A stretch of DNA of 64,000 bases from Callorhinchus milii. Its lineage: Eukaryota. Below the pieces are notes generated by a model. It was not told the origin of the DNA, ran no database searches, and saw only the letters and a program-made list of their open reading frames with translations. Each line of letters opens with the position of its first letter. Position 1 is the first letter of the stretch. A program made the translations under genes and the position numbers. Location: contig NW_024704742.1 of NCBI RefSeq assembly GCF_018977255.1, positions 87,360,001 to 87,424,000 on the forward strand. The letters are read 5' to 3'. Positions 1 through 58,313 of the stretch are shown one piece after another.

Positions 1-271
1 AGGTGATTCACAAAAAATGTTAGATAAACTGGTATAGCCTGCTGACCCACTGGTAAACACAATCTCTGGTCCGGAAAGTTAACTTTGTTTGTTTGCCTAC
101 TATAACAAACAGTCACTAGACCTCCCAGTAATTACCATGAACTGCTTTGAGATGTTAAGACATGATAAGGCTCTATAAAAATGCAATAGCTTTTTTTCTT
201 CTTTCATTCAGCTGAGATAAAAACCTGAAAGTTGGGTTTACAGTTTTTTTTGGGTCAGCCGGGCGTCTGAT

Positions 272-600
272 CACATGCGGAAACCCATGCTTAAGAGAAT
301 TCCAAACCAAGCTGAGATTTCTATATATCCCACCTAGACATGGAAATCCCAGAGATAGACTGTTGGAATGGAATGCGCACTCATCCTGGAGGGATTCATT
401 CTGCTTACCTAATTCCAGAAAGTATTAGGTCAGGTTGGCAAGAGCCAAGTCTTGGGGACCCCAGAGTGTGCGTTATGGGTACTGCTGGAGTCTAACCAGC
501 TAAAACCACATAGCTTGCCATTGATATTGTTGTCCGGCAAGCTTTCCCACTGCTTGTCCAGCTAGGACCACCATACCCACTAGGGCTTTGGCTTGAAGGG
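272..600 (+). repeat. Unclassified interspersed repeat of about 330 bp
   Basis: Homologous copies at about 17984-18320(+), 35056-35270(+) and 45190-45476(-). Confidence 0.75.
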
Positions 601-910
601 CTAAAAGGAGTTGACTAGTCTGCCCTTCCAGGTCCTGCCAGTGATCAGGCTGCCTGTGCTGTCATCAGCAGTGCCCTGGAACACTGCGGACCCGCCTGGC
701 TCAGGAGCCAGGCTACCAAGTCCGTCACAGAGTGCTGGCCCGATTCTGACATTCCATTACTGGGCATCTCACCTTGGAGCCAGTTCAGTCCCAAGGAGAC
801 CCCGCGTCACTTTTATGTTGACATGAACATGTTCAAAGACATTTTGCACAGTTCTGGAGCCACCACACCCACCTGCACATGCCAGGTGTCCCTTGAGGAC
901 GAACGACAAG

Positions 911-1130
911 GCCTAATATAATAATCCCTCCAAAACAAAAAAAACAATAATAAATTGGTCATTTTCAATCTACGACTGTTTGTGGGACATTGCTGTGCGC
1001 AATTGGCTGCCGCGTTCGCCCTCAAATATACAGTCAATTCACTTTACAGTGTGTTCTGTGAAGCGCTTTGGGACGTCCTCCCGACATGAAAAGCGCTATA
1101 TCAAATGCAAGGATTATTATTATTATTATT
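911..1130 (+). mobile_element. Young SINE, 5'-truncated
   Basis: Body and (TAT)n tail almost identical to the copies at 29859 and 57117. Confidence 0.9.
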
Positions 1131-2863
1131 ATAAGGCGCTCTATCAAATATATAAAGGATTGTTATTATCTCAGGATCTCATTCGTAACATGTACTGTAT
1201 TTTTTCAAATTAAGTTCAAGCAAATGAATATATCAGAAATGTGAATAGATGTTTGGTCACATATAAAAATAGTCCAGAGGCCGACATTCCACCTAACCTA
1301 AGATAATTTTCTTGAAAAGATTAAGATTCCTACAGAATTAGTAGGAAATTTAGAAGCTGACTTTCCTTCAGTTCTCAAAGCAACCGCTTCCAAATTAGGA
1401 CTGAATTTGAGAATTTACAATAGTGCTGAACTATTCTCTTTGAGCGCAGAATCTTACAAGAACACGAAAAAGTGTGAAACAATGAAAAGCGATCAGCACA
1501 TCAAGCCCGGCCCTTATCTAAAAACAATCACGTCAAGGTCTTAATGCCATGGACTCTAGCTCCCAGCCCGAAAATTAATCATTCAATGACATCACCTAAC
1601 CCTATGATCAGAGCAGCTTCTTGAAATCACACCAGTGATGTATACTTATGGAGTATAAACATCAGCATGGACTAGTTGAGCAAAATAGCTTGTTTCTGTG
1701 CCCTATCACTCTGTGTAATTCTATGTCAAAGTGGGTCTAATATAAACACGGTCATTTTCTAACTAACTAAGGCAGCTGGAAGCAAGTCGTGCTGACTAAA
1801 TATGAACTTTGCTCCAGTCTACAGCGCAGCAGAGCTCCTGCAGGTCACCATGAATGTACAGGATGCATGTTCTGGTTTCTGGAAGGCGTCTCTGAAGAAA
1901 CCACTTTAGATATTGTTGACAACAGCAACTTATATCGTGCCCTTCACTCTGGTAACATCTTTAAGCACTTATAAGACCCCATCATAAACTTCAAATCCAG
2001 GGCAATTTTCAATTTCCCACATTTTAAAGTCCCTCCCTCCCCCAGGTTTATGTAACAATAGCCTCTCGCACCCCCACCCCCAACCACCAAATTGCTGATC
2101 TGCCCAGTGAACACAACTAAAATGTGGGATTGAGTGAGAATAGGACAGATCTTGGGTGTGACATCCTCCACAGTCCAAAGCCTGCCAGCTCTCACTGTCT
2201 AACCTCACACACAAAGAACTTATTAATCTTTGTAACTAATAGCCACCTCAACAAGGCACTGGAGGATTTCTTGGGCTCAGAAACAGAACAAAATAGCCTT
2301 TGTAAAAAAAACAACCGTGAACAGTTTGTATCATAAATAATGTGACCAGGTGAGGTATATACAGTAAGTGATTATAGACAGAAAGAATTATAAATAAATA
2401 CTAACAATCCTTACAGTTGGTATAGCAAATGGACTCTCAAAGGATTCACAGGATATACTGTACTGTAAATTGCTGTGACTGTGTTTGTGGGCAGACACAA
2501 AATGAACAGGGTACGAATTTTAAACTTTAAGAATACAAAGAAACTATTGGAAACTATCAAGCCCCCAAATTCATGAGCCAAATATGCTGTTGAATCTGAA
2601 TAAGTTTGGACAAAAACCTCATAGAGGTTATCAAATTGGATATATAATAATAATCCTTGCATTCAATATAGCACCTTATCACGTAGTTAAGATGTTTCAA
2701 AGCGCTTCACAGAAAATATTGTAAAGTGAATAGACTGTATATTTTGTGGATTTATAACTTACTGTAAAACTGGCTTTACACCTGTTATGTGATCACAAAA
2801 AGAGTAAAATTGATAATGGTTTGTTTGAGAAGTACGCAGAAAAATGCACAGAAGCTCCCTTAC

Positions 2864-3352
2864 CCTGTGAAGTGAGGGATCTCCAGACTCATTCACACCT
2901 GTTTTCCTGCCAAGCATCCTCTCCAGCTTGCCTTCCAGAGCCTCCACCTTGCTGACAAACAACTGTCGTTCCTGCAATAACTGGGTTAGTTTGTCTCTGA
3001 GATCTGTGGATATCTTGTGAAGTTCTTGGTCCTGAAGTTCCAATGTCTGGGACTTAACTTTCAGAGCCTCACCACCGCTCTCCAAGTCCCTCGCCTGGCC
3101 CTCAAGTTGAATGAAGGAACTGTTGTAAACGTCTAGTTTTTCCACGATGGCATCGATCTCCACCCTCGTCCCGTCCACATGATGTTTCAGCGCTTGCCCG
3201 AGCTGAAGAAGACCATACGCAATGAGGTTCACATCGTCAGATGTGGCAAAGTGAGCCTTTTGCACTCCCTGAGACTTGTTCCCCAGTCTGCCCCCCAGCA
3301 CACATGCAGGGTTAACAAAGCAGATCATCATAGCAAAATAAAACGTCTTCAT
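2864..3352 (-). CDS. Angiopoietin-like protein (ANGPTL3/4/8 clade), coding exon 1, nested antisense in a DOCK8 intron; later exons not found in the window
   Basis: ATG at 3352-3350 gives MKTFYFAMMICFVNPACVLG (signal-peptide-like), then HFATSDDVNLIAYGLLQLGQALKHHV (SE1 motif as in ANGPTL3/4/8) and a heptad coiled coil. The exon ends at a phase-0 AGG|GTAAG donor after 163 codons. Confidence 0.9.
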
Positions 3353-3453
3353 TATGTGGATCCAAGCAGCTTGATGTTGCTTGTTTAGCTCACTTTCACT
3401 CTGTGCAGAGACAACTCTGCTGCTGATATGCCACAAGCCAGACACTGCACTCC

Positions 3454-3461
3454 CTTATATA
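3454..3461 (-). promoter_or_regulatory. TATA box of the nested ANGPTL gene
   Basis: The minus strand reads TATATAAG about 100 nt upstream of the ATG at 3352. Confidence 0.6.
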
Positions 3462-4497
3462 CTGTCTTTGAGAGCCTACCCAGTTGCACATATTTAAATA
3501 ATAATTAAACTCAGTGGGAACCAGTGAGGCATGCTCCATACCGCATCAGTGCTAACACTAAGGGAGTATCTCTAAAGTCTGTCCCACTTTTTTTTGCTTA
3601 TTAGCAGTGCAACTTGAACATCTTTCTGAAATTATTTTAAAACTCTCTGGGGGTAAACATTATGTTTGTTTTGTTGTATGTCGATTTGGTTGGATGCCCC
3701 AGTATGACGAATCGGGACTTGGAACTCACATAGTCTGTGATGACGCTCCAGTGTAGTGCTGGGGGTGTGCTGCGTTGTTGAAGGAGCCCTCCTTCGGATG
3801 AGACATTAAATTGAGGTGCTGTTCAGGTGAATATTAATGATTCAGTGGCACTGTTTGAAAAGAGCAGGAAGTTTCTACCGGTGTCCTGACCGACAGTTCC
3901 CCAAAATAAAATTAGTCATTCACTCCATGGCTGTTTGTGGAACATGGCTGAGTGTAAATTGGCTGTCGCGTTTGCCCACAAATACAGTCACTGCACTTTA
4001 TAGTATATCTGTGAAGTGCTTTGAGCATCCTCCCGACCTGAAAGAATTATTATTCAGTGGCTGGTGATAAGAGTGCATCAGGTGCACTGACGCATTGAGC
4101 ATGGAGCATTTATTGCATTTGCTCCCACCATTTCTTCATCCTGTGCATTTTAGGTTTCTGGCGTGTTGAGAGGAGGTGTCTGGCAGAGGCTAGGATAGGT
4201 GCCTTTTCTCCGGCCTCCCGCCCGAGAGAGGGAGCAATAATAGCCTGGTCACCTACTACCAAGGGCATTAGTCTCAGTGTCCCTCACCTCCTGCTTCTAT
4301 CTTTAGTTGGGATGTGGTGTGGGATGTGAGGGAGGGAGATAAGTTTAAAAAAAAGTGGAAAATGCCAACAATTTGCATTTATATAGTGCCCTTCAAGCAG
4401 GGTAGCATCCAACAGTGCTTAAGTAAACAAAATAATGGAACAGTTTGCATATTTCTGTGTTTTCTATGAGCTTCTGATTTCAGGTAGCTGGAAGATT

Positions 4498-5784: not shown

Positions 5785-6880
5785 CAACAACAACAAGATT
5801 GCATTTATAGAGCGCCTTTCACGTCGGGAAGACGTCCCAACGCGCTGGACAGTTGGGTCAGGACCCAAGCAGGGGGGAATGGTCAGGGTGAGGGGAGGGA
5901 AGGGAAGGAGCGAGGAGGGGGTAGAGAGTCGAGAGGGGAGCTGAAGGCACGGTTGAAGAGAAAGGTCTTGAGACCGGCCTTGAAGGAGGAAAGGGAGGAA
6001 GCAAAGCGAAGGCACTGAGGGATGGAGTTCCAGAGCCTAGTGGCTGAGAGGCTGAAAGCCCGGCCACCGATGCTAGGGCGGGGGATGTGGAGCAGACCGG
6101 AGCCAGAGGAACGGAGGGTACGGGCGGGTACATAGGGGGATAGTAGGTCGGAGGGAGCAAGGCCATGAATGGCCTTGTAGGTGAGGATGAGGATCTTGAA
6201 TTTGATCCTCTGGGGGATGGGGAGCCAGTGGAGGCGAGCGAGGGTGGGAGTGATGTGGTCCCGAAGCCTGGTGCGGGACAGTACACGAGCTGCAGAGTTC
6301 TGAATGACCTGCAGCTTGTGGAGGGAGGTGGCGGGAAGGCCGGCGAGGAGAGAGTTCCCGTAGTCCAGCCTTGAGGTGATAAAGGCGTGGACCAGAGTTT
6401 CAGCAGCGTGAGGGGTGAGGTAGTGCCGTAGTCTGGCGACATTCCGGAGGTGGTGGAAGGCAGTGCCAGCTGTAACGCGGATGTGGGGAAGAAAGGACAG
6501 CTCAGGGTCGAACAGAACCCCGAGGTTCCTGACCGGCTTTGAGAGGTGGAGAGTGCAGCCTTGGATGCTGATGCTGTCAGCGCCTGAGGTGCGGAGGCGC
6601 TGACGTGAGCCAATCAGGAGGGCCTCAGTTTTACGCACGTTGAACTGAAGAAAGTTGTCTCTCGTCCAGGACTCGATGTCGGACAGGCAGCTGTCAGGAC
6701 ATCGGTGGTCGTGGAGTTGAGGGTAGAGGAGGAAAGGTAGAGTTGGGTGTCATCCGCATATATGTGGAAGTTAACCCCATGTCTGCGGATGATGTCACCA
6801 CAGGGGGAGCGTATAAAGGGTGAAGAGGAGGGGACCGAGGACAGAGCCCTGAGGGACACCGCACGAGACAGGGTTTGACA
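5785..6880 (-). mobile_element. L2-clade LINE, 5'-truncated (RT C-terminal half plus 3' UTR and (TTG)n tail), frameshifted
   Basis: Minus-strand translation GVPQGSVLGPLLF...FHIYADDTQLY...RNLGVLFD...SRLDYGNSLL...LHWLPI...LWNSIP; the + strand starts with ACAACAACAACAAG. Confidence 0.93.
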
Positions 6881-8435: not shown

Positions 8436-10003
8436 TTCCGGTGTGTCACACGGGTAGCAATTTTTCACATGTGATTCATAACAGTGAGTTTCAGCGGACT
8501 ATTTGAGTGTGAGGGGATGTGTCGCAGCCAAACTCTATTCTTTGCCTCACCCAAGGTGTACACAAACTTGCATAGTGATCAAGAGTGGAACCCCTGGTTG
8601 ATTATCTCCTCCCTAACAGGGGACATTGAGCTATAGTGTGACACATCTCACCTCAGCTGAGATCAGATAGCTCAGCACAGAACAAGGAGACCATTCAGAC
8701 AAGTCATTGGACAATTAAGTTTTACTATATACCAAGGTTACTGGGCTTGTTTTCTGATCTTAATGTAAGGTAGTTGCTGATGTATTTTTGTTATATTTTA
8801 TTTGGTGTATCTTGTTGATAATTCTTCAAAACTCTTGGTTTACAAAGCAGCTTCACACAAGGAAACTGACCTTATTTTGCTTTTAATAACATACTTGTTG
8901 AAAGTAAACCTTGAAATGCATGGGCGTGTGAGCTCCAGTCTGGAACATGTACATACATATCATCAAAATTATTGGTCTCAAAATAGCCACAGCAGATGCT
9001 AGTAAAAAGGAATTTATTGTTTTTGAGAATAAACTCCCACTGATCTGTCCTCAAGGGAACAGGCAACTCTGTACAGAGGTTACTGTGTTAAACATATCAT
9101 AGCTGCAAGAGTCAATCCTACATTTGCAAATATCAGCAAGCGTTTACATTCTTCAGTAAGCTGTATATTTTGTGGAAGCATTGATTTACAACTGTTGGCT
9201 TAATTCTCTCTTGTTTGCTTGCTGGACTCAAGAATGACATTTAGCGCCATCGAACATATTGAGTTGCAACCGCAGCAACAACAACTTGCATTTATACAGC
9301 ATCCTTTACATAGGAAATGTCTCAGAGGACCTGATATTGGCTGGATTTAATGTGGAGCAAGGAGGAAGGGGAGGGAGAGGTGAGCTTAGGCATGGTCAAA
9401 GAAGCAGCAAGATTCAAGAATACAAAACACAATAATTAATCTTTCACAAACAATTTAAACATTTGGGTTTAAATTTTATTGCTGATCTATGATAGTCTCC
9501 TGCTTATAAAATATATAGATATTTAGCGAGGTGTCAGAAGGTTGTGAGTTCAAGCCCCACATTGGAGCTTTGAGGCTCACAGTTTCAGCTGATACTCTAA
9601 TGCAGTGCTAGGGGAGCAGAGGTGCTGTCCTTCAAATGAGATGTTCAAACAAGGTCCTGTCTGCCTGTTCAGGTGGATGTTAAAGATTCCATAGCATCAA
9701 AATGAGAAGAGAGTTTCCCCCCAGTGTTCTGGCTGACAATTCCCTGAGATAACATTGATCATTCACTTCATGGCTGTTTTGGGGATATTGCTGTGTGCAA
9801 ACTGATTGTGTTCAGGCATAAAATACACAGTCAATAGACTATAGAGTACATCATGTGCAGAGCTTTGAGACATCGAAATGACATGACTATATCAAATGCA
9901 AGGCTTAATATTATGTTATTAGAGAGCAAAATAGACCACTGTTTTCATCTGTTGGTGTTACATTATTGGTAGCGTTTTCATTTACTCTATTTATTATCTA
10001 CAG

Positions 10004-58313
<48,310 letters not shown>

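Follow-up and report, generated by a model that had tools for sequence, protein, structure and literature searches.

The window analysed here, the whole 64,000-nucleotide stretch G000:C1:87360001-87424000 of the Callorhinchus milii genome (assembly size 991.5 Mb), contains the first exon of an angiopoietin-like gene on the minus strand and, on the plus strand, coding exons of DOCK8, the gene in which it is nested (Table 1). We use the name ANGPTL-X, or X, for the nested gene. The coding part of its exon 1 is an open frame of 489 nt, or 163 codons, which ends in phase 0 directly before the donor (CAC AGG/GTAAGG). The stop-to-stop frame that holds it (2759-3454, 231 aa) ranks fourth among the six-frame open frames of the 64-kb window, four of which reach at least 231 aa at a GC content of 0.42; no Pfam match was obtained for four other long open frames of the window. 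A TATATAA motif starts 109 nt 5' of the ATG. The original prediction, made from the letters of the DNA, had described an intact 163-codon minus-strand exon with a phase-0 GTAAG donor and an upstream TATA box, placed in the intron just before a DOCK8 exon, and the locus was found to be built in this way.

Table 1. Features of the ANGPTL-X locus and of its host gene; window positions count from the first letter of the window.
Feature	Window	Contig	Strand	Basis
TATA box TATATAA of ANGPTL-X	3455..3461		-	read from sequence; motif starts at 3461
5' UTR, minimum extent seen	3353..3408		-	contig X2 record 8 covers window 2863-3408 (L029 7363-7908); 3408 is the 5' reach of the transcript-like contigs
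Exon 1 coding, 163 codons: signal-peptide-like N-terminus, SE1-type motif, first long helix	2864..3352		-	ATG at 3352, last coding base 2864; donor GTAAGG, phase 0
Intron 1, right end (whole intron 5,935 nt)	1..2863		-	exact exon walk of P0001; exons 2-7 left of window
ANGPTL-X exon 2		C1:87356818-87356928	-	exact exon walk of P0001
ANGPTL-X exon 3		C1:87355806-87355911	-	exact exon walk of P0001
ANGPTL-X exon 4		C1:87350358-87350462	-	exact exon walk of P0001
ANGPTL-X exon 5		C1:87348710-87348805	-	exact exon walk of P0001
ANGPTL-X exon 6		C1:87345348-87345623	-	exact exon walk of P0001
ANGPTL-X exon 7		C1:87344581-87344756	-	exact exon walk of P0001
DOCK8, whole mapped extent (P0121, 1989 aa)		C1:87331034-87417416	+	mapping of P0121
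DOCK8 exon before host intron, residues 428-484		C1:87343280-87343450	+	mapping of P0121
Host intron of DOCK8, 26.5 kb		C1:87343451-87369998		
DOCK8 exon, residues 483-525 of P0121, first after host intron	9999..10127	C1:87369999-87370127	+	mapping of P0121
Remaining DOCK8 coding exons, 33 tblastn pieces, residues 483-1989 of P0121	9999..57416		+	

The translation of exon 1 is identical (100 %, E 1.3e-98) to residues 1-163 of a 452-aa protein already in databases (P0001), which its sources name 'angiopoietin-related protein 3 [Callorhinchus milii]' and 'Angiopoietin-related protein 4-like'; labels of the ANGPTL3-like or ANGPTL4-like kind had been anticipated. An exact exon walk of P0001 gave a gene of seven exons with a coding sequence of 1359 nt, in which every donor is GT and every acceptor AG. 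Exon 1 is the sole exon within the window, and exons 2-7 span C1:87356928 down to 87344581. A profile search of the genome also found exons of the fibrinogen C domain (PF00147) 14-19 kb further along on the same strand. Paralogous exons of exon 1 are present elsewhere in the genome, which, like the identity to P0001, speaks against a chance open frame; the exon-1 search had matches only on contigs C1, C5 and C21. A 100 % copy occurs at a single locus, and the assembly thus holds no retrocopy.

Of seven runs guessed to be RNA, four, from two studies, were searched for spliced contigs over C1:87355501-87363600. The joint of exons 3 and 2 was present in contigs of all four runs, flanked by CT..AC on the plus strand, which is GT..AG on the strand of the gene. 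Single contigs ran from exon 2 straight into exon 1 in three of the four runs (X2 record 8, 867 nt; X5 record 22, 1528 nt; X1 record 3, 641 nt), and the contigs from X2 and X5 also contained exon 3. As the assembly has only one 100 % copy of exon 1, the form with exons 1-2-3 joined is best read as a spliced transcript. The best explanation of these observations is that exon 1 begins a real, expressed gene. It is hardly credible that the exon is instead a pseudo-exon, an annotation artefact or part of a decaying gene without function: all seven exons are open with canonical splice sites and the spliced contigs come from two studies, even if the runs are guessed, and not recorded, to be RNA. The downstream exons with a fibrinogen-like domain that a real gene of this type was expected to have are present and, in the contigs, spliced to exon 1.

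The positions of the two flanking DOCK8 exons (residues 428-484 and 483-525) place the entire ANGPTL-X gene antisense inside one intron of 26.5 kb. The host had been predicted to be DOCK8 and not DOCK6 or DOCK7, and three lines of evidence bear this out. When a DOCK-C2 exon of the window was searched, all paralogue-specific source names among the matches listed were DOCK8, the top two being DOCK8 of C. milii itself. The DHR-2 exon of the window matched solved DOCK8 best (142 bits, compared to 132 for DOCK7 and 113 for DOCK6). Downstream of DOCK8 and on the same strand follow a KN-motif exon (C1:87546754, at 129 kb) and a DM domain (C1:87596720, at 179 kb). In the Atlas the KN-motif exon lies closest to a cluster named KANK1 (score 0.97), which is a lead only. 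The DM domain matches solved DMRT1, but no other vertebrate DM protein is among the PDB matches, so that this match does not discriminate. The order on C1 agrees with DOCK8-KANK1-DMRT1, which we take to be the human gene order.

The deduced protein appears to be of the secreted type with the build of ANGPTL3 and ANGPTL4, i.e. a signal-peptide-like N-terminus, an SE1-type motif, long helices and a C-terminal fibrinogen-like domain (FReD). The N-terminus MKTFYFAMMICFVNPACVLGG is hydrophobic as judged by eye. The FReD occupies residues 236-447 of P0001 (PF00147, E 4e-59), and its best PDB matches were ANGPTL4 (236 bits) and ANGPTL3 (230 bits), compared to 183 bits for angiopoietin-2. No Pfam family and no PDB match was obtained for the N-terminal half. 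AlphaFold2, run with a 39-row alignment, gave helices at residues 38-148 and 159-214 (pLDDT 55-66) and a fibrinogen-like fold; as confidence was low (mean pLDDT 61, pTM 0.46), the model was used for secondary structure only. The FReD positions that are invariant across 39 ANGPTL3, ANGPTL4 and X sequences are kept in X, which again argues against a decaying gene.

Among proteins, the chief inhibitors of lipoprotein lipase are ANGPTL3, ANGPTL4 and ANGPTL8, all of them drug targets. By analogy with ANGPTL3 and ANGPTL4, the N-terminal domain of ANGPTL-X would be expected to oligomerise and to bind and inhibit this lipase. The SE1 motif predicted for exon 1 was confirmed as IAYGLLQLGQAL, which aligns with LANGLLQLGHGL of ANGPTL3 and IAHGLLQLGHGL of ANGPTL4 and shares nine of 12 positions with the latter, chondrichthyan sequence. 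The SE1 consensus is taken here as LAxGLLQLGxGL. The core GLLQLG is intact in X of C. milii, and lipase inhibition is therefore at least plausible in this species; judged from the protein sequence, we would put it at slightly less than an even chance. In all six shark X proteins that have the N-terminus the core reads GLYLLG or GLYLVG, an alteration that would also be in line with a gene without function. The linker of ANGPTL-X has a basic stretch, VKLRKKLKG, and no canonical R-X-K/R-R (RRKR-type) cleavage site was seen in it. The altered core in sharks and the missing cleavage site speak against a lipase role or at least complicate it. X could serve as a natural experiment on which N-terminal features lipase inhibition needs.

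A search with P0001 returned 260 proteins at E<=1e-20, of which the best 120 were listed. The closest seven of these 120 are all from sharks (500-583 bits, 50-66 % identity), followed by two partial proteins, one of a sawshark and one of a skate, with 66-79 % identity across the part that aligned. Among the same 120, bony vertebrates score at best about 390 bits, at 43-44 % identity, with proteins named ANGPTL4; close full-length relatives of X among the best 120 of 260 are thus from chondrichthyans only. The identity retained at full length between the holocephalan and seven sharks further weakens the case for a pseudo-exon. A separate protein named ANGPTL4 is present in four of these sharks (Heptranchias, Cetorhinus, Scyliorhinus, Chiloscyllium) and in Pristiophorus, the sawshark, which has one named ANGPTL3 as well.

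Which of the 120 listed matches entered the main tree was decided ahead of tree building, from their taxon spread and length, and 57 were taken. The 63 left out were mostly bird ANGPTL4 and partial proteins, together with extra teleosts and turtles, four unnamed Logan proteins and one MetaClust protein. To the 57 were added approximate, script-made models of the C. milii genes on C5 and C21 and, as outgroups, three FReD-only sequences of the C. milii genome, giving 62 rows and 465 columns, which were analysed under LG+C20+F+G4. The 59 ingroup rows (ANGPTL3, ANGPTL4 and X) were split from the three outgroups with support of 98/96. X formed a clade of its own (10 chondrichthyan rows, 100/100), with holocephalan, skate and sharks branching in the order of the species tree, which does not fit a decaying gene either. 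Jawed-vertebrate ANGPTL4 (40 rows) formed a clade without X (99/99), X and ANGPTL4 were joined at 98/97, and ANGPTL3, including the C5 gene, was supported at 97/87. As the sister of all jawed-vertebrate ANGPTL4, X split off before the divergence of cartilaginous and bony vertebrates.

It had been foreseen that the protein might fall inside the ANGPTL3 or ANGPTL4 orthogroup, and it lies outside both. Membership of ANGPTL4 was ruled out by the 99/99 clade that excludes X and by rejection of the forced grouping (AU p 0.0078), and membership of ANGPTL3 by the host, DOCK8 and not DOCK7, and by the separate ANGPTL3 clade with the C5 gene. ANGPTL8 was ruled out as well: X has 452 aa and a FReD, its host is not DOCK6, and proteins named ANGPTL8 group with ANGPTL3.

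One alternative, named before the tree was built, is that an ANGPTL4 (or ANGPTL3) duplicate specific to cartilaginous fishes landed in DOCK8 and then evolved fast. The restriction of full-length close relatives to chondrichthyans among the best 120 of 260 would agree with this. The stem of X is long (0.52 changes per column) and the outgroups are FReD-only and very long, so that long-branch effects may bear on the position of X and a fast-evolving copy could be drawn toward the base of ANGPTL4. However, the tree that forces X together with chondrichthyan ANGPTL4 is 21.6 lnL units worse and is rejected at the AU p value given above, and X falls outside an ANGPTL4 clade that takes in bony vertebrates. 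A random insertion would also have to strike the exact intron and the antisense strand that ANGPTL3 uses in a paralogous DOCK gene. We consider this origin highly unlikely.

The genome has one further DOCK-C-type gene on each of contigs C5 and C29. In the C5 gene 12.3 kb separate the homologous exons (residues 410-484 and 482-524), and between them lies, antisense, an ANGPTL3-type gene of the seven-exon type. This nested gene gave 526 bits with a guide from shark ANGPTL3, compared to about 260 with ANGPTL4 guides, and its exon 1 includes SRFAMLDDVRILANGLLQLGHGLKDFV. The DHR-2 exon of this host is closest to DOCK7 in the PDB (166 bits). On C29 the homologous DOCK exons are only 1,033 nt apart with nothing between them, and three ANGPTL8-named proteins searched against 100 kb of this DOCK6-like locus gave nothing better than E 0.9. 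The exon for residues 660-742 scored against solved DOCK6 highest for C29 (100.5 bits), followed by C5 (84.9) and C1 (65.7). Over 1575 shared positions the DOCK proteins of C5 and C29 are 78.2 % identical, those of C1 and C5 66.9 % and those of C1 and C29 63.8 %. Contig C21 carries at its start an ANGPTL4 gene (ANGPTL4 guides, 489-496 bits; ANGPTL3 guides, 281-346 bits), 609 kb from a KN-motif gene. The KN-motif search of the genome gave two loci only, on C1 and C21, and no KANK2- or KANK4-type neighbours for C29 and C5; DM-domain genes accompany the C1 and C5 blocks. Of the separate loci expected for the paralogues, ANGPTL3 in a DOCK7-like gene and ANGPTL4 were thus recovered, and the expected DOCK6-ANGPTL8 pair was absent, the corresponding intron on C29 being of about 1 kb and empty.

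These results favour the view that ANGPTL-X is the DOCK8-linked, fourth ohnolog of the DOCK-ANGPTL block, to which we assign a probability of about 0.75. An ancestral block consisting of a DOCK gene with a nested ANGPTL gene, plus KANK, would have been copied by the two early vertebrate genome duplications (2R). ANGPTL-X, the sister of ANGPTL4, would then have been kept at full length in cartilaginous fishes, its full-length form not being seen in bony vertebrates. The case for a 2R origin is built on three paralogous loci of a single genome and on the trees, with synteny that is local. On both C1 and C5 an ANGPTL gene lies antisense between homologous DOCK exons, i.e. in the same intron and orientation, and KN-motif genes are found on C1 and C21. 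The topology of the guests, ((ANGPTL3, ANGPTL8), (ANGPTL4, X)), matches that of the hosts, ((DOCK7, DOCK6), DOCK8). A fourth copy from the genome duplications had been proposed in the original prediction, and the nesting in homologous introns, the position in the tree and the separate ANGPTL3 and ANGPTL4 loci all support it.

As an ancient paralogue, X could also have arisen by segmental duplication of DOCK-ANGPTL-KANK, or before 2R, and not by whole-genome duplication. The synteny seen is indeed local (DOCK, nested ANGPTL, KN-motif gene and DM-domain genes), and in humans two of the blocks presumably share one chromosome arm. We nevertheless regard this origin as unlikely, given the congruent pairing of KANK (four clades), DOCK-C (three genes) and ANGPTL (four lineages) and the DM-domain genes that stand beside two of the blocks (C1 and C5). 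The accessible text of PMC4904190 also describes the KANK3-ANGPTL4 linkage and ascribes the expansion to four KANKs to 2R.

Short relatives of the N-terminal domain bear on the fate of X in other vertebrates. Searched by phmmer against 1.84 billion representatives, exon 1 had 86 matches, most of them ANGPTL3 or ANGPTL4 fragments, and among the 20 source-named matches were several sorts of short proteins that lack a fibrinogen domain. Non-mammalian proteins of the ANGPTL8 type came from paddlefish ('angptl8'), Pleurodeles ('angiopoietin-like protein 8') and Arapaima. Short proteins of 245-257 aa without the domain occur in lamprey and hagfish. A further set of FReD-less proteins of 200-239 aa, here called group S, comes from the frog Ascaphus and ranid frogs (Rana/Lithobates), the salamanders axolotl and Pleurodeles, a snapping turtle (Chelydra) and a bat (Glossophaga), with source names 'angiopoietin-related protein 3-like' or uncharacterised.

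In a tree of the N-terminal domain (38 rows, 218 columns) the ANGPTL8-named proteins joined ANGPTL3 (82/61), and X (99/97), S (100/99) and ANGPTL4 (99/99) formed one group (93/93). X and S were sisters in the best tree (79/34). AU tests rejected neither S with ANGPTL4 (p 0.40) nor X with ANGPTL4 (p 0.21), and X, S and ANGPTL4 are read as a trichotomy. In tblastn of six S proteins against the shark loci, the best match was X in four and ANGPTL3 in two. The bat S protein found only automatically named or 'hypothetical' chordate clusters in the Atlas, with scores of at most 0.91. It is conceivable, if rather doubtful, that group S consists of ANGPTL-X orthologues truncated in parallel with ANGPTL8, in which case X was not simply lost in bony vertebrates and the 'lost in humans' of the original prediction may need refining. 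If so, S would be a fourth, unstudied ANGPTL3/4/8 member in tetrapods including some mammals, and it might pair with ANGPTL4 as ANGPTL8 does with ANGPTL3. Through ANGPTL-X, attention is drawn to a short tetrapod relative that may have gone unrecognised.

The gene model of ANGPTL-X is already in public databases, under the misleading names 'ANGPTL3' and 'ANGPTL4-like'; the true ANGPTL3 of C. milii is on contig C5, and the database names can be corrected accordingly. A full-text search brought up no paper in which an ANGPTL gene is placed within DOCK8 or a fourth ohnolog of ANGPTL3/4/8 is reported; subscription journals and Table S1 of PMC5237311, which lay outside its scope, may list the gene under another name. 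An earlier account of the origin of the family, as given in the accessible text of PMC4172915, has ANGPTL3 in DOCK7 and ANGPTL8 in DOCK6 as duplicates and leaves ANGPTL4 alone. The fourth slot, empty so far, is taken by a full-length ANGPTL gene in the homologous intron of DOCK8, and this implies that the nested DOCK-ANGPTL arrangement is older than the vertebrate duplications. The pairing of ANGPTL3 with ANGPTL8 and of ANGPTL4 with X is testable.

Among the known family members, 'angptl9' (Costa et al. 2017) resembles X as an extra ANGPTL member reported absent from mammals, but it belongs to an ANGPTL7-9 cluster and not to the ANGPTL3-4 cluster (PMC5237311, accessible text). The same text gives five angptl genes for elephant shark, states that non-teleost fishes are single-copy for each family member except Angptl5, and in the part accessible mentions no DOCK8-nested gene. 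ANGPTL8 is, like X, located within an intron of a DOCK-C gene (Quagliarini et al., cited in PMC4172915), which in mammals is, according to the literature, the corresponding intron of DOCK6, and has an SE1-like N-terminal domain; unlike X, it is FReD-less and groups with ANGPTL3 (82/61). The statement that ANGPTL8 is absent outside mammals (PMC5237311, accessible text; PMC10475376) is qualified by the sources that name angptl8 in paddlefish and newt.

ANGPTL3 shares with X the antisense position in the homologous intron of a paralogous DOCK gene, the same domains and the seven-exon plan. It differs in its host, DOCK7 and not DOCK8, and in its separate clade (97/87), and exon 1 of the true ANGPTL3 on C5 is only 38 % identical to that of X. 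ANGPTL4 has its own locus on C21 and does not lie in an intron of another gene (PMC4172915, accessible text), whereas X sits within DOCK8, next to a KANK1-like gene, and has no RRKR-type cleavage site that we could see. In other respects ANGPTL4 resembles X: it forms the sister clade (98/97), has the same architecture with three FReD exon breaks at identical profile positions, gives the top FReD score among solved chains (236 bits) and carries an SE1-type motif with the nine of 12 positions in common.

In the tree of N-terminal domains (paired supports for the short proteins), a group of short tetrapod proteins formed a clade with support of 100/99 (P0254, P0305, P0308, P0297, P0336 and P0307; all encoded outside the window). 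These proteins, from frogs, salamanders, one turtle and one bat, are 200-239 aa long, lack a fibrinogen domain and each contain an SE1-like motif. They were placed together with ANGPTL-X, the gene antisense in the DOCK8 intron, and with ANGPTL4, apart from ANGPTL8. The sources label them 'ARP3-like' or uncharacterised, and they may represent a family member so far unrecognised in tetrapods. In lampreys and hagfishes, too, ANGPTL3/4-like proteins lacking the fibrinogen domain are present, with lengths of 241-257 aa (P0268, P0326-P0330, P0304); they formed one clade (100/100), the placement of which was weakly supported (82/61).

Among P0312, P0321 and P0324 are paddlefish and newt proteins named ANGPTL8 by their sources, and an Arapaima protein joined them with support of 99/97. 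These names and this grouping are at odds with the absence of ANGPTL8 beyond mammals stated in two papers (PMC5237311, PMC10475376).

Several features of the DOCK8 locus involve repeats or open frames (table below). At least five places matched the C-terminal 18 residues of P0121, the UniProt model of DOCK8, with 89-100 % identity, and one of them lies within intron 1 of ANGPTL-X. The C-terminal exon of this model looks repeat-derived. The oppositely oriented frames flanking exon 1 of ANGPTL-X have ...LPTNTVTA(I/L)YS... in common, which indicates a repeated element on both sides of the exon. In nearby parts of intron 1, contig depth in the sequencing runs analysed reached thousands to hundreds of thousands (window 91-1170 and 2521-2790), as is typical of expressed repeats. 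Four further long open frames (189-297 aa) in DOCK8 introns of the window had no Pfam match.

Repeat-related matches and open frames
Feature	Location	Strand	Remark
P0121 C-terminal 18-residue match	window 29884-29937	-	
P0121 C-terminal 18-residue match	G000:C1:87357774-87357827		
P0121 C-terminal 18-residue match	C5:4103535-4103588		
P0121 C-terminal 18-residue match	C29:2745554-2745610		
LPTNTVTA(I/L)YS frame	window 2411-2662	-	flanks exon 1
LPTNTVTA(I/L)YS frame	window 3837-4067	+	flanks exon 1
LPTNTVTA(I/L)YS frame	window 917-1213	+	
Long open frame	window 43175-44065	+	DOCK8 intron
Long open frame	window 5886-6749	-	DOCK8 intron; S/P-rich, low complexity
Long open frame	window 40880-41560	+	DOCK8 intron
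Long open frame	window 27637-28203	+	DOCK8 intron

The ANGPTL4-type gene of C. milii starts less than 250 nt from a contig end (G000:C21:1-545, L027). Its reading frame upstream of the SE1 motif encodes a G/L/P repeat and is rich in GC, and a stretch of about 65 residues in the exon-1 coiled coil could not be aligned with other ANGPTL4; this odd 5' part may reflect an assembly problem or genuine divergence.

The DOCK7-like gene is followed, about 43 kb downstream, by a DM-domain exon (G000:C5:4147770-4147910). DOCK8 on C1 likewise has a DM-domain gene on its downstream side, and this parallel hints further that the paralogy of the two blocks extends past DOCK and ANGPTL. In the DOCK6-like gene, the homologue of the ANGPTL-bearing introns spans only 1,033 nt (G000:C29:2741834-2742866, L018) and contains no nested gene. 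The C. milii genome therefore has the DOCK8 guest and lacks the DOCK6 guest, whereas the pattern in mammals is the opposite.
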